Shown: one piece after another, positions 6,857 through 29,392 of the stretch | Position numbering within the stretch: the stretch's first letter is position 1 | How the letters are laid out: every line of letters starts with the position of its first letter | Made by a program: the position numbers and the translations under genes | Notes under the pieces: generated by a model | Told to the model about the DNA's origin: nothing | The model's input: the letters and a program-made list of their open reading frames with translations, nothing else | Databases searched by the model: none | NCBI GenBank assembly: GCA_015478725.1 | Contig: JADMIG010000001.1 | Span: forward strand, 348,748 to 412,747 | Reading direction: 5' to 3' | Length of the DNA stretch: 64,000 bases | From: Chloroflexota bacterium | GTDB lineage: Bacteria > Chloroflexota > Limnocylindria > Limnocylindrales > CSP1-4

Positions 6857-7414
6857 ATGATCAGCACCGGCGAACTGCGCAAGGGCGTCGCCATCGAGCT
6901 CGACGGCGATCTCTGGCAGATCCTCGACTATCACCACATCAAGATGGGCCGTGGCTCGGCCCAGGTCCGGATCACCCTCCGCAACATCAAGCGAGGCCAG
7001 ACCGTCGAGCGGAGCTTCCAGGCCGGCACCAAATGGCCGCGCGCCCAACTCGACCGGCGGCCCGTCCAGTTCCTCTACCGGGACGGCGACGAGTTCCATT
7101 TCATGGAGAACGAGACGTACGACCAGTTCCACCTGACGGCGGAGCAGCTCGCCGACGCGGCCCTCTACCTCAGGGACGGGATGACCCTCGACCGGACCAG
7201 CTACCAGGGTGAGACGATCGGCGTCGAGCTGCCGGTCACCGTCGACCTCACGGTGACCGAGACGGAGCCGGGGTTCGCGGGCGACACGCAGACCGGCGCG
7301 CGCAAGCCGGCGACCACGGACACCGGCCTCGTTGTCCAGGTGCCGATCTTCGTGAGCGAGGGGGACACCATCCGGATCGACACCCGGACCGGCGAGTACC
7401 AGACCCGCGTCTGA
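6857..7414 (+). CDS. efp: elongation factor P
   Basis: MISTGELRKG...KMGRGSAQVRI...ETEPG are EF-P signature motifs. ATG chosen at M9 of the ORF to match EF-P N-termini. Confidence 0.9.
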   Translation: MISTGELRKGVAIELDGDLWQILDYHHIKMGRGSAQVRITLRNIKRGQTVERSFQAGTKWPRAQLDRRPVQFLYRDGDEFHFMENETYDQFHLTAEQLADAALYLRDGMTLDRTSYQGETIGVELPVTVDLTVTETEPGFAGDTQTGARKPATTDTGLVVQVPIFVSEGDTIRIDTRTGEYQTRV

Positions 7415-7510
7415 GCTCGTCGCCATCCGCTCAGGAGCGGTCGGCCCGCGGGTGTCCGCTCGCGCCGTGGCGCGCCGCATGGCCCGGGGCGTCTCGCTGG
7501 GCACGGATCG

Positions 7511-11565: not shown

Positions 11566-11589
11566 CCCACTGCGACCTGCGGACCGTCA

Positions 11590-12519
11590 GTGCGGCGCCC
11601 GGACGTGCCCGAGGCCGTGTGCGACGATGGTCCGGTGCGCACCATCGCGGATCGTCGGCCCCGGCTCCGGCTCGATCAGCTCCTCGTCGAGCGCGGTGTC
11701 GCGCCCACGCGGAGCCGGGCGGCTGCGCTGCTCCTCGCGGGTCGGGTCCGGGTGGGGGAGGGAGACGGGGCGCGGCTGGACCGCAAGCCCGGAGACCTCG
11801 TCGAGCCGGCCACCGCGCTCCAGCTCGTCGAGCGCGATCCATACGTCAGCCGCGGTGGCCACAAGCTCGTCGCCGCGCTCGACGCGTTCGCGATCGACCC
11901 GCATGGGCTCGTCTGCCTCGATGTCGGAGCGTCCACCGGTGGCTTCACGGACCTCCTGTTGCAGCGCGGGGCGAGCCGTGTCTATGCTCTCGACGTGGGT
12001 CGCGGGCAGCTCGCCGAACAGCTCCGGACAGACTCCCGGGTGATCTCGATGGAACGGACGAACGCCCGGACGCTCGATCGCGGCGTGCTGCCCGAGCCGG
12101 TCCGTCTCGCGGTCGTCGACATATCGTTCATCTCGCTCGGTGCTGTCCTCCACTCGATCGCCGGCTGTATCGATCCGGAGTTCGGCGGCCGGATCGTGCC
12201 GCTCGTCAAGCCACAGTTCGAGGTGGGGAAGGGACGGACGGTCGGCGGCGTCGTGCGCGACCCGGCGCTCCATCGAGAGGTCCTCGAGCGGGTCACGGGC
12301 CTCGCGATCGCTCTCGGCCTCACGCCGCGCGGACTCGTGGCTTCGCCGATCCTCGGCCCGCAGGGGAACCGCGAGTTCCTCCTCGACCTCGGCGTCCCGG
12401 TCGCGTGGACCGCTCCGGCCCCTGCGAGTCGGCAGACCGGTGGACCGCCGCCGGCCGCGGTCGCGGCCATGATCTCGCCGACGTTCCGCGATCGGATCGC
12501 CGCGGTGACCGGAGCGTGA
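11590..12519 (+). CDS. tlyA: TlyA family rRNA 2'-O-methyltransferase (S4 + FtsJ domains)
   Basis: S4-like RLDQLLVERG followed by an FtsJ motif (DVGASTGGFTDLL). Alternative GTG starts at 11605, 11617 and 11635; 11635 fits homolog N-termini best. Confidence 0.75.
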   Translation: MRRPDVPEAVCDDGPVRTIADRRPRLRLDQLLVERGVAPTRSRAAALLLAGRVRVGEGDGARLDRKPGDLVEPATALQLVERDPYVSRGGHKLVAALDAFAIDPHGLVCLDVGASTGGFTDLLLQRGASRVYALDVGRGQLAEQLRTDSRVISMERTNARTLDRGVLPEPVRLAVVDISFISLGAVLHSIAGCIDPEFGGRIVPLVKPQFEVGKGRTVGGVVRDPALHREVLERVTGLAIALGLTPRGLVASPILGPQGNREFLLDLGVPVAWTAPAPASRQTGGPPPAAVAAMISPTFRDRIAAVTGA

Positions 12520-13361
12520 GCCTCAGCCGCATCGGACTCGCCTTCAACCCGACGAATCCGGCCGCCGTGGAGCTCCGGGATCGGGCGATCGCGTGGTGCC
12601 GGCACCGTTCCATCGAGGCCTGGTCGGCCCCTTCGGGGGAGCTCGACGTCCTCCTCGCCGACCTGCCGACGACGGATGTCGTCGTCGTCCTCGGCGGCGA
12701 CGGGACGTTCCTCCGGGCTGCTCGGGCCGTCGCCGAGGTGGACGTGCCGATCCTCGGCGTCAATCTCGGCAAGGTGGGCTTCCTCTCGAAGGTGGAGGCG
12801 AACGAGCTCGAGACGGTGCTCGGCCAGATCGCCCTGGGCGAATATCGCCTCGACGAGCGGATGACGGTGGAGGCGCGGATCCTGCCCGGCGGCCTGACCG
12901 AGGGGGGCGAGCGATTCGTCGCCCTCAACGACGTCGTCGTCGCCCGGGGTGAGCTCGCCCGGGTCTGCCGGCTCGATGTCGCGGTCGGACCATCCCACGT
13001 CGCGACGTTCATCGCGGACGGTCTCGTCGTGTCGACCCCGACCGGATCGACCGGGTATGCGTTCTCGGCCGGCGGACCGATCGTCGATCCCTCGAACCGG
13101 AACCTCATCGTCACCCCGATCGCCGCCTATCTCGCCGCGATCCGCTCGATCGTCGTCAGCCCGCGACAGACGGTCCGCTGCCGGGTCGTCGACGCGATCG
13201 AGGCGCTCGTGAGCATCGACGGCCGCGAGGATCGTCGGCTCGCCGTGGGCGATGTCGTCGAGGTGCGGGCGATGGAGCGGCCGATCCGGCTCATCGAACC
13301 GAAGGGCGCCCAGCCGTTCTGGGACCTCCTGCGGCACAAGGTCGAGCTCCTCCCGTCGTGA
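12516..13361 (+). CDS. nadK: NAD(+) kinase
   Basis: GGDGT motif (VVVLGGDGTFLRAA) and NGLVVSTPTGSTGYAFSAGGP. GTG overlaps the tlyA stop (GTGA). Confidence 0.85.
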   Translation: MSLSRIGLAFNPTNPAAVELRDRAIAWCRHRSIEAWSAPSGELDVLLADLPTTDVVVVLGGDGTFLRAARAVAEVDVPILGVNLGKVGFLSKVEANELETVLGQIALGEYRLDERMTVEARILPGGLTEGGERFVALNDVVVARGELARVCRLDVAVGPSHVATFIADGLVVSTPTGSTGYAFSAGGPIVDPSNRNLIVTPIAAYLAAIRSIVVSPRQTVRCRVVDAIEALVSIDGREDRRLAVGDVVEVRAMERPIRLIEPKGAQPFWDLLRHKVELLPS

Positions 13362-15124: not shown

Positions 15125-16100
15125 GCTCGGCGCGCCTCCCTCGCTGGACGCGGCGATCGACGAGTATCTCGACCACCTCCGGGTCGAGCGCGGCCTGTCC
15201 GGCGCGACCATCGTCGCCTACCGCAACGATCTCTCGGCCTTCGCCACGTCGGCGTTCGCGTCCGACCGCTGGGGGAGCACGCCCGACGAGGCGGTCCGCT
15301 ACCTCGCCTCGCTCGGCACGCCGCCGCGCGGGGCGATCCGCCCGGCCCTTGCGTCGTCGAGCCGGCGACGCCGCACTGCCGCGCTGCGGGGGTTCTATCG
15401 GTTCGCCTACGGCGAGGGCCGGGCGACGGCGGACGTGGCGACACACCTGGACCTGCCGCGCCAGGCTCGCTATCTTCCGCACACCCTGAGCAGCGACGAG
15501 GTCGTCCGGCTCCTCGAGGTCGTGGGCGGCGAGGCGGCCCCGTCCGGCGAGGCGGGCGATGGCCGAGCCGCGCTCGAGGCGAGGCGCGCCGTCCGCGACC
15601 GGGCGCTCGTCGAGCTGCTCTACGCCGCCGGCCTCCGGGTGAGCGAGGCGCTGCGGCTCGACGCGGACGACCTGTCCCTCGACGGTGCCTACGTCCGGGT
15701 CGTCGGCAAGGGCGACCGCGAGCGCCTCGTCCCGGTCGGCGAGGTCGCGATCTCCTGGCTCGGCCGATATCTCGCCGAGGTCCGACCCACCTGGCTCGTG
15801 GGTGGAGCGGACCTTGTCCATGGTGGACCGGTCTTCGTCACGGACCGGGGTGGGCGGCTCGGCCGCCAGGCGGCGTGGGCGACCGTGAAGCGCGCGGCCT
15901 CGGCTGCCGGACTCGGCGACCGCGTCTCCCCACACACGTTCCGCCACTCATTCGCGACGCATCTCCTCGAGGGCGGAGCGGACCTGCGGATCGTCCAGGA
16001 GTTGCTCGGCCATGCGACCATCAGCACGACACAGCTGTACACACACCTGACCGGCGAGCGGATCAGGGAGGTGTACGCCCGCGCCCACCCGCGCGCCTGA
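15114..16100 (+). CDS. xerD: site-specific tyrosine recombinase XerD
   Basis: N-terminal SAM-like DEYLDHLRVERGLS...AYRNDL and a C-terminal catalytic domain (HTFRHSFATHLLEGGADLRIVQELLGHATISTTQLYTHL). Conserved after recN. Confidence 0.85.
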   Translation: MPAELGAPPSLDAAIDEYLDHLRVERGLSGATIVAYRNDLSAFATSAFASDRWGSTPDEAVRYLASLGTPPRGAIRPALASSSRRRRTAALRGFYRFAYGEGRATADVATHLDLPRQARYLPHTLSSDEVVRLLEVVGGEAAPSGEAGDGRAALEARRAVRDRALVELLYAAGLRVSEALRLDADDLSLDGAYVRVVGKGDRERLVPVGEVAISWLGRYLAEVRPTWLVGGADLVHGGPVFVTDRGGRLGRQAAWATVKRAASAAGLGDRVSPHTFRHSFATHLLEGGADLRIVQELLGHATISTTQLYTHLTGERIREVYARAHPRA

Positions 16101-16126
16101 TCGACGCGCAACAACGGAGGGGACCG

Positions 16127-16825
16127 ATGACCCGCTACGCCGATACGCTCCTCGCGACCGGGGAGGTCATCGTCCTGCGCGCCCGTCAGCACTGGCTGGC
16201 CGTCGTCCGCGACGCGCTCCGCCCGATCGTCATCGTCGTGATCGCGATCGTGCTCCTGTTCGCCGCCGGTCAGCTCCCGGCGATCCACGACGTGCTCGCG
16301 TACGCGAGCCTCGCCGGGGTCATCGTCGGGCTCCTCTGGATCGGGCTCATCGTCTGGGGCTGGTCGTCGCAGGACTACCTCGTGACGAACCGGCGCGTCA
16401 TCAAGGTCGAGGGGATCCTCAACAAGCATTCCGCGGACAGCTCGCTCGAGAAGATCAACGACGCCGTGCTCGACCAGAGCGTCATCGGCCGGATCTTCGG
16501 CTTCGGCGACCTGGACATCCTCACCGCGAACGAGGACTCCGTCGACCGCTACAAGTGGCTCGCCGATGCGGCCGGGTTCAAGAAGGAGATGCTCGACCAG
16601 AAGAACGCCCTCGAGATGGACATGCGAACTGTGCCGGCGCCGCCATTCCGTGCGGCGGCGCCGACCGTCGCCCCGGCCGCGCCGCAGACCGCAGCGGCAT
16701 CGTCCCCGATGAGCCAGGACGATGTGACGGGGACGCTCGCGAAGCTCGCCGACCTCCGCGACCGGGGGGCGATCAGCGCCGAGGAATACGAGGCGAAGAA
16801 GGCAGAGCTGCTCGCCCGACTCTGA
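16127..16825 (+). CDS. membrane protein with bacterial PH (bPH_2, YdbS/YdbT-like) domain and C-terminal SHOCT motif
   Basis: Two TM helices, then DYLVTNRRVIKVEGILNK (bPH_2-like), an Ala/Pro-rich linker, and a terminal ISAEEYEAKKAELLARL (SHOCT-like). Confidence 0.55.
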   Translation: MTRYADTLLATGEVIVLRARQHWLAVVRDALRPIVIVVIAIVLLFAAGQLPAIHDVLAYASLAGVIVGLLWIGLIVWGWSSQDYLVTNRRVIKVEGILNKHSADSSLEKINDAVLDQSVIGRIFGFGDLDILTANEDSVDRYKWLADAAGFKKEMLDQKNALEMDMRTVPAPPFRAAAPTVAPAAPQTAAASSPMSQDDVTGTLAKLADLRDRGAISAEEYEAKKAELLARL

Positions 16826-16893
16826 GCGCCGCCCGCCCCTGAGGTCGGCCCGGGTACGATACGCGGGACCTTCGAACCGAACCTGAGGCCCCC

Positions 16894-17517
16894 GTGGCGA
16901 TCGACCCCAGCCGTATCGCACTCATCGCGATCTTCCTGCTCGTGGCGTTCCCGGTCCACGAATTCGCTCATGCCTACGTCGCCTACCGCCTCGGCGACGC
17001 GACGGCGAAGATGTTCGGGCGTCTCACCCTCAACCCGGCGGTTCATTTCGACCCGATCGGCGGCCTGTTCCTCGCCTTCACGGCGATCACCTCCCCGTTC
17101 ATCATGGGTTGGGCGAAGCCGACCCCGGTGAACCCATCCAACCTGCGTGACCGCCGCAACGGAGAGGTCTGGGTCGCCCTCGCCGGACCAGCCTCGAACC
17201 TGCTCATGGCGGTCGCGGGCGCCGTCGTCGTGCGGGTCATCCTCGCGACCCAGGTCCACCTGCCGGCTGCGGTCGCGGAGATCCTCATCCTCTTTGTCCA
17301 GTTCAACGTCGCTCTGGCGCTCTTCAACATGATCCCGATCCCGCCGCTCGATGGCTCCACGCTCCTGTTCCGGGTCCTCGACCCACGGACGGCGTGGCAA
17401 CTCCGCCCGGTCCTGAGCCAGTATGGGTTCCTCATCCTGATCCTCCTGATCCTGGTGGCCGCGAATCCGCTCGGAACCCTGATCTTCAATGCCACGCGCA
17501 TCCTGGTGGGGCTCTAA
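16894..17517 (+). CDS. site-2 protease family (peptidase M50) membrane metalloprotease
   Basis: HEFAHAYVAY (HExxH) and LFNMIPIPPLDGS (LDG motif); multi-TM. Confidence 0.8.
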   Translation: MAIDPSRIALIAIFLLVAFPVHEFAHAYVAYRLGDATAKMFGRLTLNPAVHFDPIGGLFLAFTAITSPFIMGWAKPTPVNPSNLRDRRNGEVWVALAGPASNLLMAVAGAVVVRVILATQVHLPAAVAEILILFVQFNVALALFNMIPIPPLDGSTLLFRVLDPRTAWQLRPVLSQYGFLILILLILVAANPLGTLIFNATRILVGL

Positions 17518-17989
17518 GGTCCGCCAGTTCCGGGCGCACGTCGGGGCGCGGGTCACGGCGGCCGAGCGCGCGGAGCTGGCGACCTGGCTCACGCCCGCCC
17601 AGCTGGAGGTCTTCGACCGCATGCACATCGCGGATCGCCGCCACGGGCTCGATGTCGCGGCGTCGCTCGCCGCGGGCGGTTCGGCCGATCGCGAGCTCCT
17701 CCTGGCGGGGCTCCTCCACGATGCGGCGAAGGGAGCCGATGTCGGCGTCTGGCCGCGCGTCGCCTGGTCGCTCGGGCGGGCGTATGGGCCGGCGGTCCGT
17801 CGCGTCGCCGACCGGGTGCCGGGCTTCAGGCTCGCGCTGCGACGGCTGGACGACCACGCGGAACTCTCCGCGCGACTCGCCGCCGCGGCCGGCTGTCCGG
17901 AGCGGACGGTCGAGCTCATCCGGCACCAGGATCATCCGGTCGATCCTGACGCCGGCGGACGGCTCCATCTCGCCGACGAGGCGAACTGA
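17489..17989 (+). CDS. HD-domain phosphohydrolase-like protein
   Basis: LLHDAAKG HD motif. It overlaps the upstream gene by 29 nt, so the true start is uncertain. Confidence 0.5.
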   Translation: MPRASWWGSKVRQFRAHVGARVTAAERAELATWLTPAQLEVFDRMHIADRRHGLDVAASLAAGGSADRELLLAGLLHDAAKGADVGVWPRVAWSLGRAYGPAVRRVADRVPGFRLALRRLDDHAELSARLAAAAGCPERTVELIRHQDHPVDPDAGGRLHLADEAN

Positions 17990-18798
17990 TGCTCGAGGCT
18001 GCGGTCCGCGCGGTTCCGACGGTCGAGTTCGGCGAGGGACGGGGCCCGGAGGCTTCAACCCGGATCCGCCTGCCCGACTTCGACGGCCCGCTCGGGCTCC
18101 TCCTCGCCCTCATCGAGAGCGAACGCCTCGACATCCTCACCGTCCCGCTCGGTGCCCTCGCGGGGGCGTATCTCGAAGCGCTCGCGGGGCTCGAGGATGA
18201 CCGGCTGGCCAACATCTCGGCCTTCGTCGGCGTCGCGAGCCAGCTCATCGTCATCAAGAGCCGGGCGCTCCTGCCGCGCCAAGATCCGCGACCCGCGGAG
18301 GGACTCCCGCCCGACGAGGGGCCCGATCCCGAGGCGGAGCTCCGCGCCCGACTCATCCTCTACCGGGCGTTCCGCGACGCGGGAACGGTCCTCGCGGACC
18401 GGGCGGCGGCGATCGGCAGACTCTTCCGGCGCGAGCCCGGGCTCGCCCACGCCTCCGCCCTCGCCGGCGCTGCTCCGTCCGACGCGCCACCGCTCGATCC
18501 GGCGCTCCTCGTCGGGGCCCTGGCCGATCTCATCAGCGTCGTTCCGTCGTCGCCGCCTCCTCCAGGAACCCTCCGCCGAGCCGTGTCCATCGCCGAGCGG
18601 TCGGCGGTCATCCGGGCGGCCATCCGCGACGCCGGCTCGATCGTCCTCCAGGACCTCCTCCGCGACGTTCGCGACCGGGTCGTCGCCGCTGTGACGTTCC
18701 TCGCCCTGCTCGAGCTCGTGAAGCGGCGCGAGGTCGTCGTCGAGCAGACGGTGCCGTGGGGCCCGATCGTCGTGCGCCCGATCGGCGACCCACGGTGA
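17989..18798 (+). CDS. scpA: segregation and condensation protein A
   Basis: LPDFDGPLGLLLALIESERLDILTVPL is typical of ScpA. Followed by scpB. Confidence 0.8.
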   Translation: MLEAAVRAVPTVEFGEGRGPEASTRIRLPDFDGPLGLLLALIESERLDILTVPLGALAGAYLEALAGLEDDRLANISAFVGVASQLIVIKSRALLPRQDPRPAEGLPPDEGPDPEAELRARLILYRAFRDAGTVLADRAAAIGRLFRREPGLAHASALAGAAPSDAPPLDPALLVGALADLISVVPSSPPPPGTLRRAVSIAERSAVIRAAIRDAGSIVLQDLLRDVRDRVVAAVTFLALLELVKRREVVVEQTVPWGPIVVRPIGDPR

Positions 18799-19472
18799 GC
18801 GAGGACCTCCGATCCGCGGCGGCCTCCGACGAGGCGCCATCGGCCGCGCCGCCATCGGCCGCGCCGCTCACCGAGGCCGCTCTCGAGGCGCTCCTCTTCG
18901 TGGCCGTCCGTCCGCTCACGCGACGCGAGATCGCGACCATCGCCGGGACGGATCGGGCGACCGTGGATGCGCTCCTCGGCGATCTCGAGATCACGCTCGC
19001 CGGCCGCGGGATCCGGCTGGTCGTGAGCGGCGACCGCGTCGAGCTCGCGACGAGCCCGGCCGCCGGATCGCTCATCGCGCGCTATGTCGGCGACGACGGT
19101 GCCCGTCCCTCACCGGCCGCCCTCGAGACACTCGCGATCGTCGCCTACCGGCAACCGGCGACGCGAGCGGTCATCGAGCGGGTCCGCGGCGTCGATTCGG
19201 ACTACGCCCTGCGGATCCTCCTCCACCGTCGCCTCGTCGTCGAGCTCGGCCGGGCGGATGCGCCGGGCCGGCCGTATCTCTACGGCACGGGCTTCGAGTT
19301 CCTCGAGCGGTTCGGGTTGACGAGCCTCGACGATCTGCCGGTCCTCGCTGCGGAGATCGCCGGCCGCCTCACCGATGCCGCGGACGATGGTGGCACCGAG
19401 AGCGGCATCGACATCGTCACCGACGATGACACGGAGCGGTCCGTTGCCGCGTCCACGGCCGCGCCGGCCTGA
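18795..19472 (+). CDS. scpB: segregation and condensation protein B
   Basis: LEALLFVAVRPLTRREIA winged-helix motif. GTG overlaps the scpA stop (GTGA). Confidence 0.8.
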   Translation: MSEDLRSAAASDEAPSAAPPSAAPLTEAALEALLFVAVRPLTRREIATIAGTDRATVDALLGDLEITLAGRGIRLVVSGDRVELATSPAAGSLIARYVGDDGARPSPAALETLAIVAYRQPATRAVIERVRGVDSDYALRILLHRRLVVELGRADAPGRPYLYGTGFEFLERFGLTSLDDLPVLAAEIAGRLTDAADDGGTESGIDIVTDDDTERSVAASTAAPA

Positions 19473-20305
19473 TGGCGCCCGAGCGGCTCCAGAAGATCCT
19501 TGCGGCGGCGGGCGTGGCGTCCCGCCGGGCGAGCGAGGCGCTCATCGCCGCCGGGCGGGTGACCGTCGACGGCCGGGTCGCGACGGTCGGCGAGTCGGCG
19601 GATCCGAGGATCGCGGCGATCGCCCTCGACGGGCAGGCGATCCACCCGCCGGATCGGGCAACGCTCGTCCATCTCGTCGCCAACAAGCCGCTCGGCGTGA
19701 CCTCCACCGTCAGCGATCGCCACGCCGAGCGTACCGTCCTCGACCTCGTCCCGCGGGAACTCCGCCCGGACGGCGGCCGCCTCTATCCGGTCGGGCGCCT
19801 CGACCGCGACTCGGACGGTCTCCTCATCCTCACCAACGACGGGGCATGGGCCGAGCGCGTGCTTCATCCGCGGTACGGCGTGGAGCGCGAGTACGCGATC
19901 GGCCTGGACCGTCCGCTCGGCCCGGCCGAGGCCACCGCACTCAGCGGTGGGATCCCGCTCGAGGAGGGCCTCGCGGAGCTCTTCCACCTCCGCGCCGCGA
20001 GCGGCCCGGAGACCGCCCGGCTGGACGGACTCCTCGACCCGCGGCCGGGCTCGCTCGCCTGGTACCGGGCGACGCTCCGCGGGGGCTGGCGCCGACAGCT
20101 CCGCCGGATGTTCGGTGCCGTGGGCGTGCCCGTCGTCCGCCTCGTCCGCGTCCGCTTCGGGCCGGTCCGTCTCGAGCGGCTGCGGAGCGGCGACGTACGG
20201 GTCCTCACGCCGGCGGAAGTCCGGGCGCTGCGGGCGGGTGCCGGGACCCCGAGCGCCGGGCCACCGGGCCGTAGACCACGCGGACCATCCGAGCCGCTAT
20301 CGTGA
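19472..20305 (+). CDS. pseudouridine synthase, RsuA/RluB family (S4 + catalytic domain)
   Basis: S4 (RLQKILAAAGVASRR) and catalytic LYPVGRLDRDSDGLLILTNDG. Conserved position after scpAB. Confidence 0.85.
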   Translation: MAPERLQKILAAAGVASRRASEALIAAGRVTVDGRVATVGESADPRIAAIALDGQAIHPPDRATLVHLVANKPLGVTSTVSDRHAERTVLDLVPRELRPDGGRLYPVGRLDRDSDGLLILTNDGAWAERVLHPRYGVEREYAIGLDRPLGPAEATALSGGIPLEEGLAELFHLRAASGPETARLDGLLDPRPGSLAWYRATLRGGWRRQLRRMFGAVGVPVVRLVRVRFGPVRLERLRSGDVRVLTPAEVRALRAGAGTPSAGPPGRRPRGPSEPLS

Positions 20306-21018
20306 CGGCGATGGATGCGGAGCGGCTCGGAGGGCTCGTCGTGGCGCTCGATGGGCCGGCCTCATCGGGCAAGAGCAGCGTCGGCGCGGCCGCGGCGGAG
20401 GCACTCGGCTATCGGTTCATCGACACCGGTCTCCTCTACCGCGCCCTGACGTGGCTTGCCCTCCATCGAGGGATCCCACTCGCCGACGGGAGCGCCCTCG
20501 TGCCGCTCATTCCGGAGATCGAGCTCGCGCTCGACGGCGCCGGTCGGCACGCACGCGTCGTCGTCGGCGGGATCGACCGAACGGCGGCGGTCCAGACGGC
20601 GCGGGTGGATCGCAGCGTGTCAGAAGTGGCCCGGACGCCGGAGGTTCGGGCGGCGTTCCTTCCCGTCCAGCGCGGACTCGCGTCGCGCGGCGGCATCGTC
20701 GTCGCCGGTCGCGACATCGGGACGGTCGTGCTGCCGTCCGCGGACGTCAAGCTGTTCCTCGACGCCTCCGTCGAGGAGCGGGCCAGGCGACGGGCGGCGG
20801 AGCGCGGCGAGCCACCGGAAGGACCCGCCGCGGAACGGATCCTCGACGAGCTGCGGCGCCGGGACGAGGTCGACCGGAACCGGTCGGTCGCCCCGTTGCG
20901 CGCGGCCACCGACGCCCGCCACGTCGTGACGGACGGGAACTCGTTCGAGGAGACCGTCGCCACGGTCATCAGCGCGATCCGATCCTTCGCGGACGGCCGG
21001 ACGACGGTCGCGCCGTGA
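20302..21018 (+). CDS. cmk: (d)CMP kinase
   Basis: P-loop VALDGPASSGKSS plus cytidylate kinase motifs. GTGA overlap with the upstream gene. Confidence 0.85.
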   Translation: MTAMDAERLGGLVVALDGPASSGKSSVGAAAAEALGYRFIDTGLLYRALTWLALHRGIPLADGSALVPLIPEIELALDGAGRHARVVVGGIDRTAAVQTARVDRSVSEVARTPEVRAAFLPVQRGLASRGGIVVAGRDIGTVVLPSADVKLFLDASVEERARRRAAERGEPPEGPAAERILDELRRRDEVDRNRSVAPLRAATDARHVVTDGNSFEETVATVISAIRSFADGRTTVAP

Positions 21019-22780: not shown

Positions 22781-24403
22781 ATGGCCGCCCTGCCGATCGT
22801 CGCCATCGTCGGCCGCCCGAACGTGGGCAAGAGCACGCTCTTCAACCGGATCCTCGGCGCACGGACGGCGATCGTCGAGGATCGGGCGCGGACGACACGC
22901 GACCGGCTGTACGGTGACGCCGAATGGAACGGTCGGCGGTTCATCGTCGTCGACACCGGGGGCCTCGAGGCGGACCCGGGCGACCCGATCGAAGCGAAGG
23001 TCCAGGAGCAGGCCCGTCTCGCGATCGCCGAGGCGGACGTCATCGTGTTCGTCGTGGATGCCGCGACCGGGCTAGCCCCGGCCGATGTCGACACCGCCGA
23101 CCTTCTTCGCCGGGCGACGGCGCCCGTCCTCGTCGCGATCAACAAGGCGGACAACGAGCGTCGCGAGCTCGAGGGCGCGGAGTTCTACGCGCTCGGCTGG
23201 GACGAGACCTATCCGATCAGCGCCGCGCACGGCCGGGGGACCGGCGACCTCCTCGACGCCGTCGTCTGGGCACTCCCGCCGGAGACGCCGGAGGAGCTCG
23301 CCCGGAAGTCCCGCGAGGCGGAGGCGGATCGGTGGGCGCGGGACGTCGCGGCGGGCCACCTCGAACCGATCCTCGCCGAGGGGCCCGACGGTGCGACGCC
23401 GATGGTGGACGACGATGGAGACGACGTCGGCGGCGACGAGATCGAGGCCCGTCGCTGGGACGCCGCGATGGCTGCCGACGCCGATTCGGGTCCCGCCGCG
23501 ATCGCCCTCGTCGGGCGCCCGAACGTCGGCAAGTCGAGTCTCCTCAACGCCCTGCTCGGGGAGGACCGGGCGATCGTCACCGACATCCCGGGCACGACGC
23601 GGGATGCCATCGACACCCGCCTCGCCTGGGGTCGGAGCGAAGTCGTCCTCATCGACACGGCCGGGATGCGCCGCCGTGGCAAGGTGGCCACGGGGTCGGC
23701 GACGGATCGCTATTCGACGCTGCGCGCGCTGCGGGCGATCGGCCGGGCGGACGTCGCGATCCTCGTCATCGATGCGGTCGAGGGGATCACCGCCCAGGAC
23801 GCCCACGTGGCGGGGTACGTCGTCGAGGAGGGCAAGGGCCTCGTCGTCGCGGTGAACAAGTGGGATCTCGTCGCGGACAAGACGGACAAGACGTTCGAGC
23901 AGTATGTCGAGTGGATCCATCACGAGGCGCCATTCCTCGACTTCGCGCCCATCCTCAGCATCAGTGCGAAGACCGGCCAGCGAGTCGGCCGCGTCCTCGA
24001 GGCCGCCGTGGACGTCTGGGGCGAGCGCCGTCGTCGGGTGCCGACAGCCGAGCTCAACCGGCTCGTCGCCGCCGCGTCGGATCGCCAGCTCCCGCCGGTC
24101 GTCAAGGGTCGACGACCGAAGATCTTCTACGCGACGCAGGCCGCCGTGGCGCCGCCGACGTTCGTCTTCTTCGCGAACGACGCGGCGTCGGTTCACTTCA
24201 GCTACCGCCGCTACCTCGAGAACCGCCTGCGCGACGCCTTCGGCTTCCTCGGCACTCCCGTGCGCCTCGTGTTCCGCGACCGAAGCTCGGTGAAGCTGCC
24301 GCGTCGTCGGCCCGCACGCGCTCCCGGACGACGCGCAGCCGGCGGTCGGCCGACGCCCGGCCGCTTACCGTCTCCCCGCGATACCGGTCGCGCGGACCGC
24401 TGA
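22781..24403 (+). CDS. der: ribosome-associated GTPase Der (EngA), two G-domains + KH-like
   Basis: Two GxxxxGKS P-loops ([28 protein letters not shown]) separated by an unusually long acidic linker. ATG at M158 of the ORF. Confidence 0.85.
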
Positions 24404-24460
24404 ACCGGGCGATCCTGTCCAGCGGTGCGACCGTCGGGCGGTGGTAGACTGCCGGCCTGT

Positions 24461-24537
24461 CGGGGCGTGGCGCAGCCTGGTAGCGCACCTGAATGGGGTT
24501 CAGGAGGCCGAGCGTTCGAATCGCTCCGCCCCGACCA
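24461..24537 (+). tRNA. tRNA-Pro (anticodon GGG)
   Basis: 77 nt cloverleaf. Acceptor CGGGGCG/CGCCCCG, D-arm GCGC-AGCCTGGTA-GCGC, anticodon stem CCTGA/TCAGG with loop ATGGGGT (GGG), T-arm GAGCG-TTCGAAT-CGCTC, discriminator A, CCA. Confidence 0.85.
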
Positions 24538-24654
24538 GCGATCTGAGCACGCAACGGCCTTTCCGAGCGTCCCGGATAGGCCTGCACGCGGAGCGAGACC
24601 GGACGCACGATCAACCCAGCGTGGCTGACCGGCACGGCAGACAGAGGCATCGCG

Positions 24655-24933
24655 ATGCGGATGCTGAGAAGTCCCTGGACTCGTGCATTCCTTGTCTGGA
24701 CCGTCATGCTCCTGGCCGCGGCGGTGCTGGTTGCCCTCGACGCCGTGATCGGGCTCCTCCGAGCCGACGAGGCGTGCTACTTCCAGGTCGGTCCCTGTCC
24801 GCAGGCGGGGGATCCTGACCTCGTCCAACTGGACTTCGCCTTCTTCGGGATTCCGCTGATCTGGCTCGTGGGAGTCCTGCTCGGCGTCGTTGGTCGGGCG
24901 CTGACACGGCGAAGCCGAACTGCCGCTCCCTAG
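24655..24933 (+). CDS. small membrane protein (92 aa, 2 predicted TM helices), uncharacterised
   Basis: ORF with two hydrophobic helices, located immediately inside the islet. Confidence 0.35.
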   Translation: MRMLRSPWTRAFLVWTVMLLAAAVLVALDAVIGLLRADEACYFQVGPCPQAGDPDLVQLDFAFFGIPLIWLVGVLLGVVGRALTRRSRTAAP

Positions 24934-25148: not shown

Positions 25149-26105
25149 TCACGCGGACGCGAGGACCGCTCGGAGCAGGAGCCCGGCGTTCCGCGGCGTT
25201 TCGCCGACCCGTCGGATCGCGTAGGGCCACCACGAGCTGCCGAACGGCAGGTAGAGTCGGAGCCGCTCACCCCGCTCCACGAGCGCGTCCTGCAGCGGCG
25301 GCCGCACGCCGTACAGCATCTCGAACTCGTAACCGCCGGCAGGCCATCCGTTTCGCCTCGCTGCCGCCCGGATCTCTCGGATCAGTCGCACATCGTGGGT
25401 GGCAAAGATCGGATAGAAGCCTGCCTCGCGCGCTTCGGGCGCGAGCATCAAGCCCGCCGCCCGCAGATACCGGCGACCGATCTCCGGCCTGCGCGTCGAG
25501 GCGAGCCGTGGCGGCTCGCCCAGGGCGCCCTTGACGAGGCGAACCGCTCCGCCGGGAGTCACGCAGCGGCGCACGTCGGCCTCGTAGCGATGCAGATATG
25601 CCTGGAGCGTGATGGCCGCCGGCAGCGAAGCGGCCCGCAGATCCGCGTACAGCCCGATGGTCGCGTCGGTCGCCGACGAATCCTCCATGTCGAGCATCAG
25701 GTAGCGCCGTTGCACGTCCGTCGCACCGCCTGTTGCGGCAACGGCGCGACCGAGCTCGAACACGTTCGCCCGGCAGGTCGCCTCGTCGATCATCAAGCCC
25801 ACAGCGGTTGGATCAACCGAGACATGGACATCGAGCCTCGCCCGGGCGAGTTCGTACACCGCCGCCTTCAGCTCGTTCATCGTCCGGGCGACGGTGGCAG
25901 GGTCGTCGACGTATTCGCCGAGGTAGAAGAGGGAGCAGAGGCGGCCGCGTTGCCGCAGGTCTGCCGCCGTCTGGATCGCCTCGGCGAGGTTGTCGCCGCC
26001 GACGAAGCGCCGGGCGAGCGCGGACAGCGCGGAACGACGGTGCATGAACATGGTCAATGGCTCGTTTCGTGCCAGCGCGATCATCGCGCGCTGCCAGAGT
26101 CCCAT
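25149..26105 (-). CDS. proline dehydrogenase (monofunctional PutA-like PRODH, TIM-barrel)
   Basis: PRODH motifs throughout (LMLDMEDSS, LQAYLHRYE, VRLVKGA, IFATHD, FEMLYGVR). 318 aa. Confidence 0.75.
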   Translation of the reverse strand: MGLWQRAMIALARNEPLTMFMHRRSALSALARRFVGGDNLAEAIQTAADLRQRGRLCSLFYLGEYVDDPATVARTMNELKAAVYELARARLDVHVSVDPTAVGLMIDEATCRANVFELGRAVAATGGATDVQRRYLMLDMEDSSATDATIGLYADLRAASLPAAITLQAYLHRYEADVRRCVTPGGAVRLVKGALGEPPRLASTRRPEIGRRYLRAAGLMLAPEAREAGFYPIFATHDVRLIREIRAAARRNGWPAGGYEFEMLYGVRPPLQDALVERGERLRLYLPFGSSWWPYAIRRVGETPRNAGLLLRAVLASA

Positions 26106-26266
26106 CGTGGGGCGGTCTCCTGCGGTTGACGCGGGCGAGATGGTACATCCGGAAAGGAGGTTCTCTCGGGGCGGCCCGGGGTGCGGTAGATTCCGCCCAT
26201 GGGGGTGACCAAGATCGAGTCCTGCCGTGTCGACCCCGAAGCTCCGCCGCTTCGGGCGCTGGCGCG

Positions 26267-26875
26267 ATGACGCCGACCGAGTACCGCTGTGCCTCGTGCG
26301 GCGGCCCTCCCCGCGATGAAGATCGCTTCCAGTGCGCCGACTGCGGCCGCCCGCTCGGCATCTGCGCCGACTGCGGCTGGTGCGTCCGGTTCTTCGCGAG
26401 CGACAACCCGGTGGACTGCGATGGGTGCGGCTTCGCCCCGCTGTCTCACGAAGAGGAGGAAGGGAACAGATCGTTTCGCGAACACATGATCGCAGCTCTT
26501 CGGCGACAGATGGAGGCGCTCAAGCAGATGCAGGAGCGCTCGGGGCCGATCTACGAACTCGCCCGCGAACGGAGCCGGATCATCAGCGAGGCATACCGAT
26601 CCGCCGGACGACCGCGGAAGGTGAGTCTGACGCGCACCCCCGAAGGGTGGGAGTACGTATTCCATTTCCGTCGTGGGAGCGAGTGGCACCGGGAACCTGC
26701 CACCAAGGAAGACGCGGACGCTTGGTACGCGTGGTGGCGCGAACGCGACCGCCTCCGTCGCGCGTTGGGGAGCCATCGCGGGCAGGGGACCGGCCCACCC
26801 GGCAAAGCCCCTGTCGCTGAGCCTCGCCCAACCGCGACTCCCGATCAATGGGGCGACGGAGGGTCCCGTGTCTGA
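26267..26875 (+). CDS. uncharacterised Zn-ribbon protein (four CxxC pairs) with coiled-coil/Trp-rich C-terminal region
   Basis: CASCGG...CADCGRPLGICADCGWC...CDGCGF. ATG at M71 of the ORF avoids overlap with PRODH. Confidence 0.45.
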   Translation: MTPTEYRCASCGGPPRDEDRFQCADCGRPLGICADCGWCVRFFASDNPVDCDGCGFAPLSHEEEEGNRSFREHMIAALRRQMEALKQMQERSGPIYELARERSRIISEAYRSAGRPRKVSLTRTPEGWEYVFHFRRGSEWHREPATKEDADAWYAWWRERDRLRRALGSHRGQGTGPPGKAPVAEPRPTATPDQWGDGGSRV

Positions 26876-26953
26876 CCGCGCGGCAACGTGCGTCCCAGAC
26901 GTGGCCGTGGCCTCTCCCGAATGCATGGACGCGGCCTTGCGAGGTGCCGTCTG

Positions 26954-27487
26954 ATGGCGTGGCGGTGGCCGCTGGCCAGGCAGCTTGCCAAGTCGCGAGG
27001 GCTCATCGGTCGGCTGATCGCGGTCGCCCTGGTCGCCGCAGGTTGCACCACCGTGACCATCGTGGTGCCCACCACCCCGGCATCGCGCTCGCCTACGACC
27101 GTGACCGTCCCCCCATCAACGCCACGAGCCACCGAAGACCTCACTGCTGGAAGCCCGAGCCCGACGGCGCAGCTGACCTTCGTCCCGACTTCGTCGCCTC
27201 CCGGGCCGACCCCAGGGCTGATCGCCGGCATCTGCGCGGTCCGCCTCGAGCGGGGCGACACCGTAGTCGTGTTGCACGAACCGCTCGAGCCGGACCGCGC
27301 CAGTTGCAACTACCTAGCGGAGAACACACACTTGGCCATCGGGGGCAATTGGTCGATCGCTTTCGACGTACCGCTCGCCGATTCACTCGTATGCCGGGGC
27401 TATTTCGGCAACGCGGCGATCCCGTTCGACGTCTGGGACTCCGGCGATCACCACTGGGGCGATCTCGTATGCAAGGCCTACCGCTGA
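26954..27487 (+). CDS. putative lipoprotein (signal peptide with lipobox VAAGC), uncharacterised
   Basis: N-terminal basic region, then LIGRLIAVALVAAG-C, a Thr/Pro-rich linker and a Cys-containing domain. Confidence 0.45.
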   Translation: MAWRWPLARQLAKSRGLIGRLIAVALVAAGCTTVTIVVPTTPASRSPTTVTVPPSTPRATEDLTAGSPSPTAQLTFVPTSSPPGPTPGLIAGICAVRLERGDTVVVLHEPLEPDRASCNYLAENTHLAIGGNWSIAFDVPLADSLVCRGYFGNAAIPFDVWDSGDHHWGDLVCKAYR

Positions 27488-27603
27488 GCTGATCGTTGTT
27501 TGAGCGGGCCCTGGAAGAGCTGGAACGGCTCAAGCCTCCGAACGGACCTGCGGCTTGATACGACGGGCTCCTCCGGATGAGGAATGCGAACGGAGGAGGT
27601 CGA

Positions 27604-28086
27604 ATGAGGCTGCTCTGGGAGTGGCGCTGGCTCGTGGCCTGGTTCATGGCCTTCGCAGTGGTCGCGATCGGCACGGGACCTGACTCACCCGTGGGGCCGA
27701 TCTACGCGGGCCTCACAGGCCTGGGTCTGCTCTACCTCTGGGCACGGTGGGGAAGAGGTCTCGGCACGCTGACCTGGGAGCTTCAGGACGCTCTTGGTGC
27801 CTATTTCCAGTTGGGTGAGCAACTCGCCGAGCTTGTGGCGGCACCATCCGGTGGGCAGGAGCGCCTTCAGCGCTTGGACGCGCTTGCTGCCAAACGGCAC
27901 GCAGCCGAGGAGAAATTGGACGGGCTCCTCGGGCGATGGCCGCGGAACGCAGGGCTCGCGGGCCGCATCTTCCCCTCGTGGGGCCAATCCGTCGAGAGGA
28001 ACCTCGCCGTCGCGCTGCAGAGCCGACAGCGCGCTGCCCGAACGTACGATCTCATGGCAACTGCGATCGCACAGTCCGAGGTGTGA
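27604..28086 (+). CDS. uncharacterised membrane protein (2 TM helices + coiled-coil tail)
   Basis: Strong RBS GGAGGAGG 4 nt before the ATG. Hydrophobic N-terminus (LLWEWRWLVAWFMAFAVVAIG). Confidence 0.45.
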   Translation: MRLLWEWRWLVAWFMAFAVVAIGTGPDSPVGPIYAGLTGLGLLYLWARWGRGLGTLTWELQDALGAYFQLGEQLAELVAAPSGGQERLQRLDALAAKRHAAEEKLDGLLGRWPRNAGLAGRIFPSWGQSVERNLAVALQSRQRAARTYDLMATAIAQSEV

Positions 28087-28506
28087 GCGGCGACGTGTCG
28101 GGATCGGTCTGAGGCCTCGATCGCCTTGCAGCGGCGCTTCCGATCGATGAGCGAAGCATCGCAACCCGGTCCCGACAGCAGGCGCCACTGGCAGCGGCAG
28201 CCGATGTGTGGGTGCAAGCCCGGGAGTCAGCCGGGGGCTGAAAGGCGCCTGCTAGAGAGCGATGGGACGTGATCTGACTGATCGTGCGTAATGACCTGCT
28301 TGTGGGACGGTCCGGACGCGGCCCGCTCCGTGTCACGCCACCGATCGAATAAGGGACCAGCGCGGAGATGCCCTTTTCGAACGGGGGAGGCGACCCCCGG
28401 ACCGATTCCTCGCCAGCCGGACGGCATGCTGGTTGCGTCGTTCCGGTTGAGATCGACGCAGAACCGGCCGCTGCTGTTGGGTCGTCACTGACGGCAGGGC
28501 TCCCCT

Positions 28507-28530
28507 TTGACCCACAAGTTGACCCACAAG
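28507..28530 (+). repeat. perfect tandem 12-mer TTGACCCACAAG x2
   Basis: Read directly from the sequence. It lies about 80 nt upstream of the pseudo-tRNA repeat, in a 630-nt non-coding, lower-GC stretch. Confidence 0.7.
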
Positions 28531-28611
28531 GCCGCGGACGATGGGGGTCACAAGTGGACGCCGCGGACGGCTGTGGAGCACGAAAGCAGGGGTCTGAACA
28601 CCCCGAAAGTA

Positions 28612-28657
28612 CATGGGGTTCAGGAGGCCGAGCATGCGAATCGCTCCGCCCCGCCCA
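28612..28657 (+). repeat. pseudo-tRNA fragment: degenerate copy of the 3' 46 nt of tRNA-Pro (attR-like)
   Basis: catggggttcaggaggccgagcatgcgaatcgctccgccccgccca vs tRNA aatggggttcaggaggccgagcgttcgaatcgctccgccccgacca. It lacks the 5' half and the CCA end. Confidence 0.7.
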
Positions 28658-28718
28658 ACGATCGGCGACCGACGTGCGGAGGCACGTCCTCTGGGCCGAT
28701 CGTCAGCGCCGCCCCGGC

Positions 28719-29258
28719 CTACGGACCGGCTATGACCCCCGGTGCGGCAAGAACGTCGTTCGTGGCCCCGCCGGCCAGCGAACCGCTGAAACTGCCCATG
28801 ACGGCGCCGATCGAGCCGACCGCGGCCGAGGGCGACGCGGCGATGCCGATGCCGGTCACGATGATCGGCTCGATGTTCACCGTGTCCGAGTCGAGGATGT
28901 GGATCGTCAGCACGTTGGCGGCGATGGTCGCGGTCGCCCCGAGCGAGCCGGGCGACTTCGCCGTCGACGGGGAACCGGTGAAGGTCACCGTCGCGCCGGA
29001 GCCGGCGTGATCGGAGATCGTCACCTCGAAGGATCCGGGGCCTCTCCCGAACGCCGCGGGGCCCGCCTCGCCGAACGAGAGGACGAGGGTGGTTCCCGAC
29101 GATCCGCCACGCGGGACGGACCCGACGGCGGTGACGATGACCGTCGAGAACGCCGGTGGGGCCGCGCTCGGGGTCGCGACGCTCGGTGGCGGCGTGGGGC
29201 TGCTGCTGCACGCGGCCATCGTGACGATGAGCGCCAGGACGAGGAAGATGCGGGCCAT
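28719..29258 (-). CDS. putative lipoprotein (lipobox MAACS), Ser/Thr/Gly/Ala-rich
   Basis: MARIFLVLALIVTMAAC-SSSPTPPPS signal/lipobox, then low-complexity beta-rich sequence. Confidence 0.5.
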   Translation of the reverse strand: MARIFLVLALIVTMAACSSSPTPPPSVATPSAAPPAFSTVIVTAVGSVPRGGSSGTTLVLSFGEAGPAAFGRGPGSFEVTISDHAGSGATVTFTGSPSTAKSPGSLGATATIAANVLTIHILDSDTVNIEPIIVTGIGIAASPSAAVGSIGAVMGSFSGSLAGGATNDVLAAPGVIAGP

Positions 29259-29392
29259 CCGGCCAAGGGTACGCCAGTTGCTCCGGATCGAGCCTGGCCG
29301 GGGCTCATCCGCGGACGAAGCGCGGACGAATCACCGACGGCGGAGTACGCTGGCCGCAGGCGCGTTCAACCGTCGACACTTTGGAGGTCATC

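Follow-up and report, generated by a model that had tools for sequence, protein, structure and literature searches.

Islands and remnants of integrative elements that target tRNA genes lie between the tRNA gene and a second, directly repeated copy of its 3' half; they are atypical in composition, carry orphan or accessory cargo, and occupy a site that is empty in close relatives. Prophages and integrative elements also carry add-on ("moron") genes, which are small and self-contained, have their own translation signals, and vary among elements. Among them are element-encoded lipoproteins and small membrane proteins with a role in exclusion, such as T5 Llp and F TraT.

The 64,000-nucleotide stretch of Chloroflexota DNA analyzed here (the window) contains an islet of this kind, with a tRNA and a repeat of its 3' half at the boundaries, an empty site in a relative, atypical composition, and orphan cargo. 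It differs from the described islands in lacking an encoded integrase or recombinase, an excisionase, or any other mobility gene, in being only 4.1 kb long, and in having one cargo gene (encoding a proline dehydrogenase) with host-like codon usage. Three further genes in the islet, here called genes 1, 2, and 3, had been singled out in a sequence-only reading as a possible undescribed defence, immunity, or toxin-handling system.

A tRNA-Pro islet with an empty site in a close relative

The left boundary of the islet is a tRNA-Pro(GGG) gene that follows ispH and der, an order kept in relatives, and the right boundary is an orphan copy of the 3' half of that tRNA. The features of the islet outside the three genes are as follows.

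24461..24537, + strand: tRNA-Pro(GGG), which bounds the islet on the left, at the attL side (ARAGORN; Rfam tRNA, 60.3 bits)
24493..24543: direct repeat copy 1, the tRNA-Pro 3' half plus 6 nt (repeat search)
24655..24933, + strand: cargo gene for a 92-amino-acid protein that has two hydrophobic segments (open reading frame, hydropathy windows)
25149..26105, - strand: cargo gene for a monofunctional proline dehydrogenase, oriented divergently from gene 1 (Pfam Pro_dh, 1.6e-23)
28087..28612, no strand: right end of the islet, apparently noncoding (six-frame translation by eye; Rfam)
28613..28663: second copy of the direct repeat, an orphan 3' half of tRNA-Pro, attR side (repeat search)

The two repeat copies are 51 nt long, share 92% identity, and are spaced 4,120 nt apart, with 4.1 kb of DNA between the tRNA-Pro and copy 2. 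Copy 2 also matches the tRNA 3' end of the closest relative (L089, whose Der is 84% identical) at 93% over 45 nt. In that relative the site is empty: the distance from tRNA-Pro to tatA is covered in 377 bp, and its DNA aligns with window positions 23098-24538 and then picks up again at 29325. The earlier placement of the three genes inside an islet is thus borne out by the tRNA-Pro(GGG), the repeat, and the empty site. Not one islet gene was present after der in any of 80 relatives, and the spacer 3' of the tRNA-Pro in relatives ranges from 0.3 to 8.7 kb. A second partial copy of the tRNA-Pro was found in none of the 45 relative loci that carry the tRNA, so nothing indicates that integration of this kind has recurred at the site.

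Two of the cargo genes lie to the left of the trio. Scans of Pfam, NCBIfam, PHROGs, and PADLOC assigned no family to the 92-amino-acid protein, which is missing at the locus in relatives. The proline dehydrogenase scored 2.3e-49 against the NCBIfam model ProDh_Thermus, which is under the cut-off of that model, and no proline dehydrogenase gene follows der and tRNA-Pro in any of the 80 relatives; with a codon log-odds of +0.30 against host core genes, it is the exception among the islet cargo. No recombinase domain was found by Pfam in any called islet gene, and six-frame translation, judged by eye only, showed no integrase remnant at either end; the islet was therefore filed as a remnant, and the case for an integrative element is drawn from two features, the repeat, which is att-like, and the unoccupied site in the relative. 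The Rfam scan returned no match other than the tRNA and none at 28087..28612. A scan of the islet for promoters and terminators, which is uninformative for this phylum, returned nothing.

Three coding genes of atypical composition

The trio and the predicted ribosome-binding site of its last gene are located as follows.

26267..26875, + strand: gene 1, with a pattern-based double Zn ribbon at residues 8-54, a conserved unnamed alpha/beta domain (about residues 60-166), and disordered tail (homologues, AlphaFold)
26954..27487, + strand: gene 2, predicted lipoprotein with a Thr/Pro linker and a C-terminal four-Cys domain (homologue P0014, substitution pattern)
27592..27599, + strand: GGAGGAGG, predicted ribosome-binding site of gene 3 (read from the sequence)
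27604..28086, + strand: gene 3, orphan membrane protein with an N-terminal hydrophobic hairpin and a helical tail (codon log-odds, hydropathy)

Three co-directional open reading frames with gaps of 78 nt (genes 1 and 2) and 116 nt (genes 2 and 3) and a strong ribosome-binding site had been described from the DNA, and the coordinates, both gaps, and GGAGGAGG, which lies 4 nt before the gene 3 ATG at 27604, were all recovered. For each gene the described frame had the highest codon log-odds of the six possible frames. The GC content at codon position 3 was 0.77, 0.81, and 0.76 for genes 1, 2, and 3, against 0.88 to 0.94 in core genes, and that at position 2 was 0.59, 0.58, and 0.53. The trio had been called low in GC, which holds in a relative sense, since the three genes have an overall GC content of 0.67 to 0.68, and the islet one of 0.66 to 0.69, compared with about 0.72 for the window. 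Codon log-odds measured against host core genes were -0.13, -0.02, and -0.01 for genes 1, 2, and 3 (der, +0.56), and values near 0 fit a foreign origin. Substitutions relative to homologues fell mainly at third codon positions, with 84 at the third position versus 48 and 46 at the others in gene 1 and 62 versus 36 and 22 in gene 2. Genes 1 to 3 are real, coding-like genes that are horizontally acquired and host atypical, in agreement with their earlier description as accessory-island genes.

Public annotation of this genome does not include gene 1 and instead calls a 281-amino-acid antisense open reading frame. Replacement of the gene by an antisense frame in the public calls of a GC-rich metagenome-assembled genome means that the gene-1 family is undercounted in protein databases, and the miscall is a lesson for the annotation of such genomes.

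None of the three genes matched anything above threshold in Pfam, NCBIfam, PHROGs, or PADLOC, in line with the earlier remark that they fit no nameable family. In PADLOC-DB v2, genes 1 and 3 had no match and gene 2 had only a spurious one to MTase_I (9.3 bits, E = 0.06), and the PHROGs scan gave only a 17-residue match (E = 0.002). No match was obtained among the viral structures of BFVD (best E = 0.05). For genes 2 and 3, searches of PDB sequences (phmmer) produced no meaningful match and searches of phage genomes (tblastn) produced none.

Gene 1 belongs to a rare family defined by its C-terminal domain

Gene 1 encodes 202 amino acids, with Cys residues at positions 8, 11, 23, 26, 33, 36, 39, 51, and 54 that make up four CxxC pairs. 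The AlphaFold model contains a long helix at residues 61-92 and a Trp/Arg-rich helix at residues 147-166; residues 61-166 were modelled with a pLDDT of 85 to 95, whereas the Zn ribbons were modelled at low confidence. The four CxxC pairs and the Trp/Arg-rich tail reported from the sequence are therefore both present. The best Pfam match is Zn_ribbon_3, at 13.4 bits versus a cut-off of 27; because the spacing of the CxxC pairs is visible below that threshold, the region is termed zinc-ribbon-like by pattern only. Like Zn_ribbon_3 and DZR proteins, gene 1 has two CxxC...CxxC units, and one family member matches DZR (E = 3e-4); unlike those families, most members of the gene-1 family have no ribbons. 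Zinc-binding anti-sigma (ZAS) factors carry an HxxxCxxC motif and adjoin a sigma-factor gene. This assignment was rejected for gene 1, in which no His precedes any CxxC of the Cys-rich region and for which the islet contains no sigma-factor gene.

Among 5.8 billion proteins, 12 homologues of gene 1 were found, and a profile search expanded the family to about 106 cluster representatives. Conservation is concentrated at residues 80-165. Members share a basic, Arg/Trp-rich C-terminal core domain of about 100 amino acids with the order helix-helix-three strands-helix and two invariant motifs, Q-M-x2-R-S-G-P and W-x2-W-x3-R-x-R. The N termini vary: the RSGP-type core motif was recognized in 66 members, of which 14 carry three or more CxxC pairs upstream, 30 consist of the domain alone, and 22 have N termini of other kinds. 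An N-terminal DUF6197 domain was present in 3 of 78 aligned members; DUF6197 has been reported in actinophage genomes (PMC10586128). One DUF6197-fused member was compared with phage genomes and had no match. Judged from these alignments, the predicted Zn ribbons are an optional N-terminal addition, and the family is defined by its C-terminal domain. The "sensor-like" Zn ribbon proposed earlier is accordingly not the conserved part of the protein.

The gene-1 domain resembles MarR-type winged-helix and integrase arm-type DNA-binding domains in its basic character and in its order of elements, with helices, a three-stranded sheet, and a helix. In Foldseek comparisons, its strand-strand-strand-helix part was paired with the arm-type domains 3jtz and 3rmp with probabilities of 0.60 and 0.35, at E values of about 0.4 to 0.9 that are not significant. 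A PDB sequence search with a profile of 78 family members gave no meaningful match, and no relative of gene 1 was found in phage genomes (INPHARED, tblastn), plasmids, or IMG/VR contigs.

The genomic contexts of the homologues contain recombinases and defence genes. In L003, the homologue begins within the last few nucleotides of a resolvase gene (4-nt overlap), and in L096 the homologue adjoins a large, convergent serine recombinase gene, with NERD, SSB, and CBASS genes elsewhere in that element. Homologues were also found among tightly packed small genes with a tyrosine integrase and HTH_17 (L007) and near a resolvase-type recombinase, a tyrosine integrase, and an N6 methylase (L011). An Mrr_cat nuclease gene lies 45 nt downstream of the homologue in L012, which also has a methylase, and in L001 methylase, Vsr, and NERD genes lie upstream, with Abi_C, PIN, and Mrr nearby. 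The recombinases are of different types, and none was found within the DNA available for L001, L006, L008, L009, and L012. All-against-all BLASTP of the open reading frames from 12 context loci and the window, a set that leaves out L096, identified no conserved partner of gene 1, and apart from the gene-1 homologue no two loci had a protein in common. The family is rare, and in soil Chloroflexota and Actinomycetota its genes travel singly from one integrative element or defence island to another, a distribution that agrees with the defence-type setting suggested at the outset. Gene 1 itself probably encodes a nucleic-acid-binding protein of mobile elements.

Genes 2 and 3 encode predicted envelope proteins that are lineage restricted

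Gene 2 encodes 177 amino acids and has the features of a predicted lipoprotein: basic residues R4, R9, K13, R15, and R20, a hydrophobic signal segment (I22-V27) that leads into VAAGC31, and the lipobox A-A-G-C31, followed by further Cys residues at 94, 118, 147, and 173. Besides the self-match, only one homologue was found (P0014, 68% identity), in which the lipobox is V-A-G-C and the four later Cys residues are invariant. The original description of a lipoprotein with a Thr/Pro linker and a four-Cys domain is well matched by these features; the product is predicted to be a secreted lipoprotein and probably contains disulfide bonds. The homologue belongs to a different element, in which its neighbours are genes of the HTH_17 regulator or excisionase type. 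Its contig is 1.5 kb long and begins 80 nt upstream of it, where the preceding gene is visible for 28 residues that are unlike the gene-1 tail. A structure model of gene 2 from the two sequences was unusable (mean pLDDT, 33.6). An inverted repeat inside the gene (27234-27300) was considered as a regulatory hairpin and rejected, as the homologue does not preserve the second arm.

Gene 3 encodes 160 amino acids. Two transmembrane segments had been proposed; the first, at residues 9-25, is strongly hydrophobic, whereas the second, at about residues 32-48, is weaker and falls under the hydropathy cut-off, which bears out the proposal only in part. Among 5.8 billion proteins, gene 3 returned only its self-match.

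Probably separate genes rather than one system

An operational test for a conserved multigene system is whether its genes recur together in unrelated genomes, and in public data these genes do not. Genes 2 and 3 had no tblastn match in the 138.7 kb of context loci around gene-1 homologues. In all, DNA could be read for 10 independent gene-1 loci, two of which are contigs of less than 2 kb, and none carries gene 2 or 3. Likewise, genes 1 and 3 had no tblastn match at the locus of the sole gene-2 homologue, which may conceivably have a diverged gene-1-like neighbour. With one homologue of gene 2 and none of gene 3, the failure to see them together weighs little against an operon peculiar to this lineage, and the common strand, short gaps, and similar composition mean that the three genes could be cotranscribed. 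As far as public data reach, the trio is never found together elsewhere, and the proposal that it forms a unit was not upheld. On balance, it is reasonably likely that genes 1 to 3 are unrelated leftovers, carried as independent cargo of a degraded integrative element, and not a conserved three-gene system.

A functional, lineage-specific defence, immunity, or toxin-handling module, in which a cytoplasmic Zn-ribbon sensor would work with an envelope lipoprotein and a membrane protein and whose rarity would have kept it out of other sampled genomes, would account for the arrangement and similar foreign composition of the genes, for their place in an accessory islet, and for the defence-island-like surroundings of gene-1 relatives in L001, L011, L012, and L096. 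It is nonetheless improbable, given that every gene-1 locus with readable DNA lacks genes 2 and 3 and any conserved partner, that the gene-2 homologue occurs without gene 3 or a recognizable gene 1, that PADLOC matches none of the three, and that the gaps are of intergenic size, compared with the overlapping starts and stops of gene-1 homologues in real element operons. If the trio were an undescribed three-gene system, it would be a new defence or immunity module, which the evidence does not support. There is a similarly small chance that gene 1 is an accessory protein of the element's recombination machinery, such as one that regulates a serine or tyrosine recombinase or controls its directionality, and that it was stranded when the recombinase was lost, with genes 2 and 3 unrelated to it. 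Its small, basic product with Zn ribbons, the neighbouring serine recombinase genes (overlapping in L003, convergent in L096), the recombinases within a few kilobases in L007 and L011, and the weak Foldseek likeness to arm-type domains all suit such a role, but the structural matches are not significant, the recombinases differ in type with no single partner conserved, and five loci (L001, L006, L008, L009, and L012) have none in their available DNA.

It is very unlikely that gene 1 alone is under selection and that gene 3, and possibly gene 2, is decaying, nonfunctional, or a chance open reading frame. DNA with 67 to 72% GC produces long open reading frames in many frames, gene 3 has no homologue anywhere, and the integrase is already gone from the islet; an antisense frame also shares the low-GC second position of gene 3, which makes the GC-frame signal only weakly strand specific. 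Against this, the gene 3 frame remains the best of six (-0.01, versus -0.36 for the best antisense frame), GGAGGAGG is strong and ideally spaced, and the encoded protein has a protein-like hydrophobic N terminus and an amphipathic tail, while gene 2 is under purifying selection relative to its homologue and keeps its four Cys residues.

Proposed origin of the islet and possible roles of its cargo

The preferred explanation, that of independent cargo in a degraded element, can be set out as a sequence of events. The anatomy of the islet suggests that site-specific recombination inserted an element at the 3' end of tRNA-Pro(GGG), duplicating 51 nt, and that its recombinase was then lost, which would have left the 4.1-kb remnant with genes 1 to 3 stranded in it as separate pieces of cargo. 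Gene 1 would bind nucleic acid in the service of a mobile element, through regulation, control of recombination, or conflict between elements. Genes 2 and 3 encode predicted lineage-restricted envelope proteins of the add-on type carried by prophages and integrative elements, whose small size, self-containment, own translation signals, and variability among elements they share; the HTH_17 regulator or excisionase-type neighbours of the gene-2 homologue are a further likeness. We speculate that they act in exclusion or surface modification; they have no sequence or structural similarity to known exclusion proteins.

It is possible, though unlikely, that the C-terminal domain of gene 1 represents a new family of single-gene nucleic-acid-binding factors that hop between integrative elements and defence islands, where they would take part in inter-element conflict (defence or anti-defence) or assist recombinases as accessory factors of a new kind, with interchangeable N termini (double Zn ribbon, DUF6197, or none) tuning their specificity. 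The gene-1 family, which is small and unnamed and has neither a Pfam entry nor a structural relative, is a reasonable, if low-priority, target for screens of mobile-element and defence functions. The islet itself offers a clean case of a tRNA-Pro islet late in decay, complete with an empty-site control.

Insertion at the tRNA-Pro gene

The 4.1-kb islet that holds the three co-directional genes (genes 1 to 3) is an insertion at tRNA-Pro(GGG), bounded by an att-like direct repeat that carries the 3' half of the tRNA gene, and its site is empty in a relative. Between the repeats lie a 92-aa membrane protein gene, a proline dehydrogenase gene, genes 1 to 3 and ~0.5 kb without a recognisable gene. 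No recombinase was found in the islet by Pfam searches of the called genes or by reading six-frame translations of its ends by eye.

Features of the islet
24461-24537: tRNA-Pro(GGG)
24493-24543: direct repeat, copy 1 (3' half of tRNA-Pro plus 6 nt)
25149-26105, minus strand: monofunctional proline dehydrogenase (Pfam Pro_dh, 1.6e-23)
26267-26875, plus strand: gene 1, open reading frame of 202 aa
26954-27487, plus strand: gene 2, open reading frame of 177 aa
27604-28086, plus strand: gene 3, open reading frame of 160 aa
28613-28663: direct repeat, copy 2 (51 nt, 92% identity)

The contig, with locus tags IVW53_01665 and IVW53_01670, is part of a Chloroflexi MAG whose source metagenome was that of a copper-mine biofilm (PMC7849705). 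The site was compared with 80 metagenomic loci encoding relatives of the flanking GTPase Der, among which the order ispH, der, tRNA-Pro and PLP-dependent decarboxylase recurs; not one of the 80 has an islet gene at the der/tRNA-Pro site. The DNA of the closest relative, L089, whose Der is 84% identical, aligns to 23098-24538 and resumes from 29325 with just 377 bp between, and it therefore represents the empty site. Among the relatives, ~0.3 to 8.7 kb separate tRNA-Pro(GGG) from the decarboxylase gene downstream, which marks the site as a variable spot; a second partial tRNA copy was found in none of the 45 tRNA-carrying loci. A 179-aa lipoprotein gene with host-like GC3 (0.91), located immediately outside the right repeat (28719-29258, minus strand), is also missing from L089, where synteny restarts only at 29325.

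Genes 1 to 3 are foreign in character, and their codon log-odds against host genes are near zero, with der at +0.56. The proline dehydrogenase gene has host-like codon usage (+0.30), though it is missing from the site in all 80 relatives; the islet may thus be a mosaic, or this gene may be cargo derived from a close relative.

Coding status of the three genes

Long open reading frames occur in all frames of this GC-rich DNA (~72% in the window), so the coding status of genes 1 to 3 was checked explicitly. All three stand exactly where the sequence-only reading placed them, on the plus strand with gaps of 78 nt (genes 1 and 2) and 116 nt (genes 2 and 3), and GGAGGAGG lies 4 nt 5' of the gene-3 ATG. 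Their GC3 (0.77, 0.81 and 0.76) and GC2 (0.59, 0.58 and 0.53) are coding-like, and a codon model built from 25 core open reading frames of the window scores the annotated frame of each highest among the six. Differences from homologues concentrate at third codon positions, with 84 versus 48 and 46 at the other positions for gene 1 against L001 and 62 versus 36 and 22 for gene 2 against L005, the contig with the gene-2 homologue. The public annotation of the contig replaces gene 1 with a 281-aa antisense open reading frame (26081-26926, minus strand), and gene 1 itself is missing from the 5.8-billion-protein collection. On the evidence of its homologues and codon-position substitution pattern, gene 1, and not the antisense frame, is the real gene.

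Genomic contexts of the homologues

Gene 1 had 12 homologues among 5.8 billion proteins, and 106 of 1.84 billion cluster representatives matched its profile. Its contexts were read from 10 independent loci with DNA (two on contigs of <2 kb) and from gene lists for two further contigs. Recombinase genes recur as neighbours of the gene-1 relatives, as do genes for restriction, Abi or CBASS.

Contexts of gene-1 homologues
L001: DNA methylase, Vsr and NERD, then the homologue; Abi_C, PIN and Mrr close by
L003: end of a resolvase gene overlaps the start of the homologue by 4 nt (pair at 7306-8591)
L006: LysM protein and unnamed genes beside the homologue
L007: tightly packed small genes, tyrosine integrase, HTH_17
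L008: homologue adjoins a menaquinone operon
L009: small unnamed genes, overlapping
L011 (Ca. Limnocylindrales): serine recombinase, tyrosine integrase, N6 methylase
L012 (Chloroflexota): Mrr_cat nuclease 45 nt downstream; also a methylase
L094: 80-aa gene upstream, overlapping the homologue
L096: homologue adjoins, convergently, a 608-aa large serine recombinase (pair at 10001-12676); NERD, SSB and a CBASS pair (CD_NTase_C and Cap15) lie in the same element (15377-20582)

Across public data, genes 1 to 3 are independent of one another. Genes 2 and 3 had no tblastn match at any of the 10 loci, and in an all-against-all comparison of open reading frames, which left out L096, the gene-1 homologue was the sole protein common to the loci. 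Gene 2 had one homologue (68% identity), on a 1.5-kb contig where HTH_17-type genes and one for uracil-DNA glycosylase come after it; the contig lacks gene 3 and any recognisable gene 1. Gene 3 matched only itself among the 5.8 billion proteins. The trio had been put forward as a candidate undescribed defence, immunity or toxin-handling system, to be refuted if it never recurred elsewhere; these data show no recurrence, so the proposal fails by its own measure, on a comparison with little power for genes 2 and 3, which are so rare.

Some family members are decaying: the homologue in L012 (1950-2479) is broken across two frames, by frameshift or assembly error, and in a Trebonia MAG (L013, 8001-8162) an ~54-aa fragment is left.

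The encoded proteins

Gene 1 was accurately described from sequence: nine cysteines, forming four CxxC pairs, precede a long helix and a further one rich in Trp and Arg. In the AlphaFold2 model, residues 61-166 (helix, helix, three strands, helix) have pLDDT 85-95, and the zinc-ribbon region is poorly modelled. Conservation is concentrated in residues 80-165, with Q87, M88, R91, G93, R102, A109, P116, W153, W156 and R162 invariant. Among 66 members with an RSGP-type motif, at least three CxxC pairs lie upstream in 14, the domain stands alone in 30 and 22 have other N-termini; DUF6197, reported from actinophage genomes (PMC10586128), is N-terminal in 3 of 78 aligned members. These counts and the conservation pattern indicate that the family is defined by its C-terminal domain, with the zinc ribbon, earlier called "sensor-like", as an optional module. 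The exact 15-nt repeat TGCGCCGACTGCGGC, which occurs twice within gene 1, 30 nt apart (26333-26347 and 26363-26377), and encodes the protein's two CADCG zinc knuckles, may point to an internal duplication.

The domain had no match in Pfam, NCBIfam, PADLOC or PDB sequences, and a PHROG match covered 17 residues only. Foldseek E values were no lower than 0.3 for the PDB and 0.05 for viral models; the modelled domain's weak resemblance to MarR-type winged helices and integrase arm-binding domains offers no more than leads, compatible with a basic, Arg/Trp-rich domain and not proof of nucleic-acid binding.

The gene-2 product is a predicted lipoprotein, as described: its signal segment ends in VAAG-C31, it has a Thr/Pro linker, and its four other cysteines are all invariant in the single homologue. 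A 20-nt inverted repeat within the gene (27234-27253 and 27281-27300, 95% complementary) is probably fortuitous, since its second arm is not kept in L005. For gene 3, described as having two transmembrane segments and a coiled-coil tail, the strong N-terminal hydrophobic segment and helical tail stand, and the second segment is weaker.

Interpretation

Genes 1 to 3 are probably independent cargo. The islet would be the stump of an integrative element whose recombinase has since been lost, gene 1 would encode a nucleic-acid-binding protein in the service of mobile-element biology, and genes 2 and 3 would encode add-on envelope proteins, for which a role in exclusion is speculation. The closely spaced trio could instead be a lineage-specific operon, an improbable reading set against gene-1 loci that have neither partner.

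Two alternatives are compatible with independent cargo. Gene 1 might be a recombinase accessory factor, as the neighbours of its homologues in L003 and L096 could suggest, and we give this the same small weight as the operon. Slightly less probable still is a lack of function in gene 3 or gene 2; both have coding-like composition, and gene 3 matches only itself. That the gene-1 family forms a novel class of factors in conflict or recombination is doubtful, if somewhat less remote than these. Islets bounded by a tRNA gene and loaded with orphan cargo are well known, and the sole partly novel element here is the unnamed gene-1 domain family.
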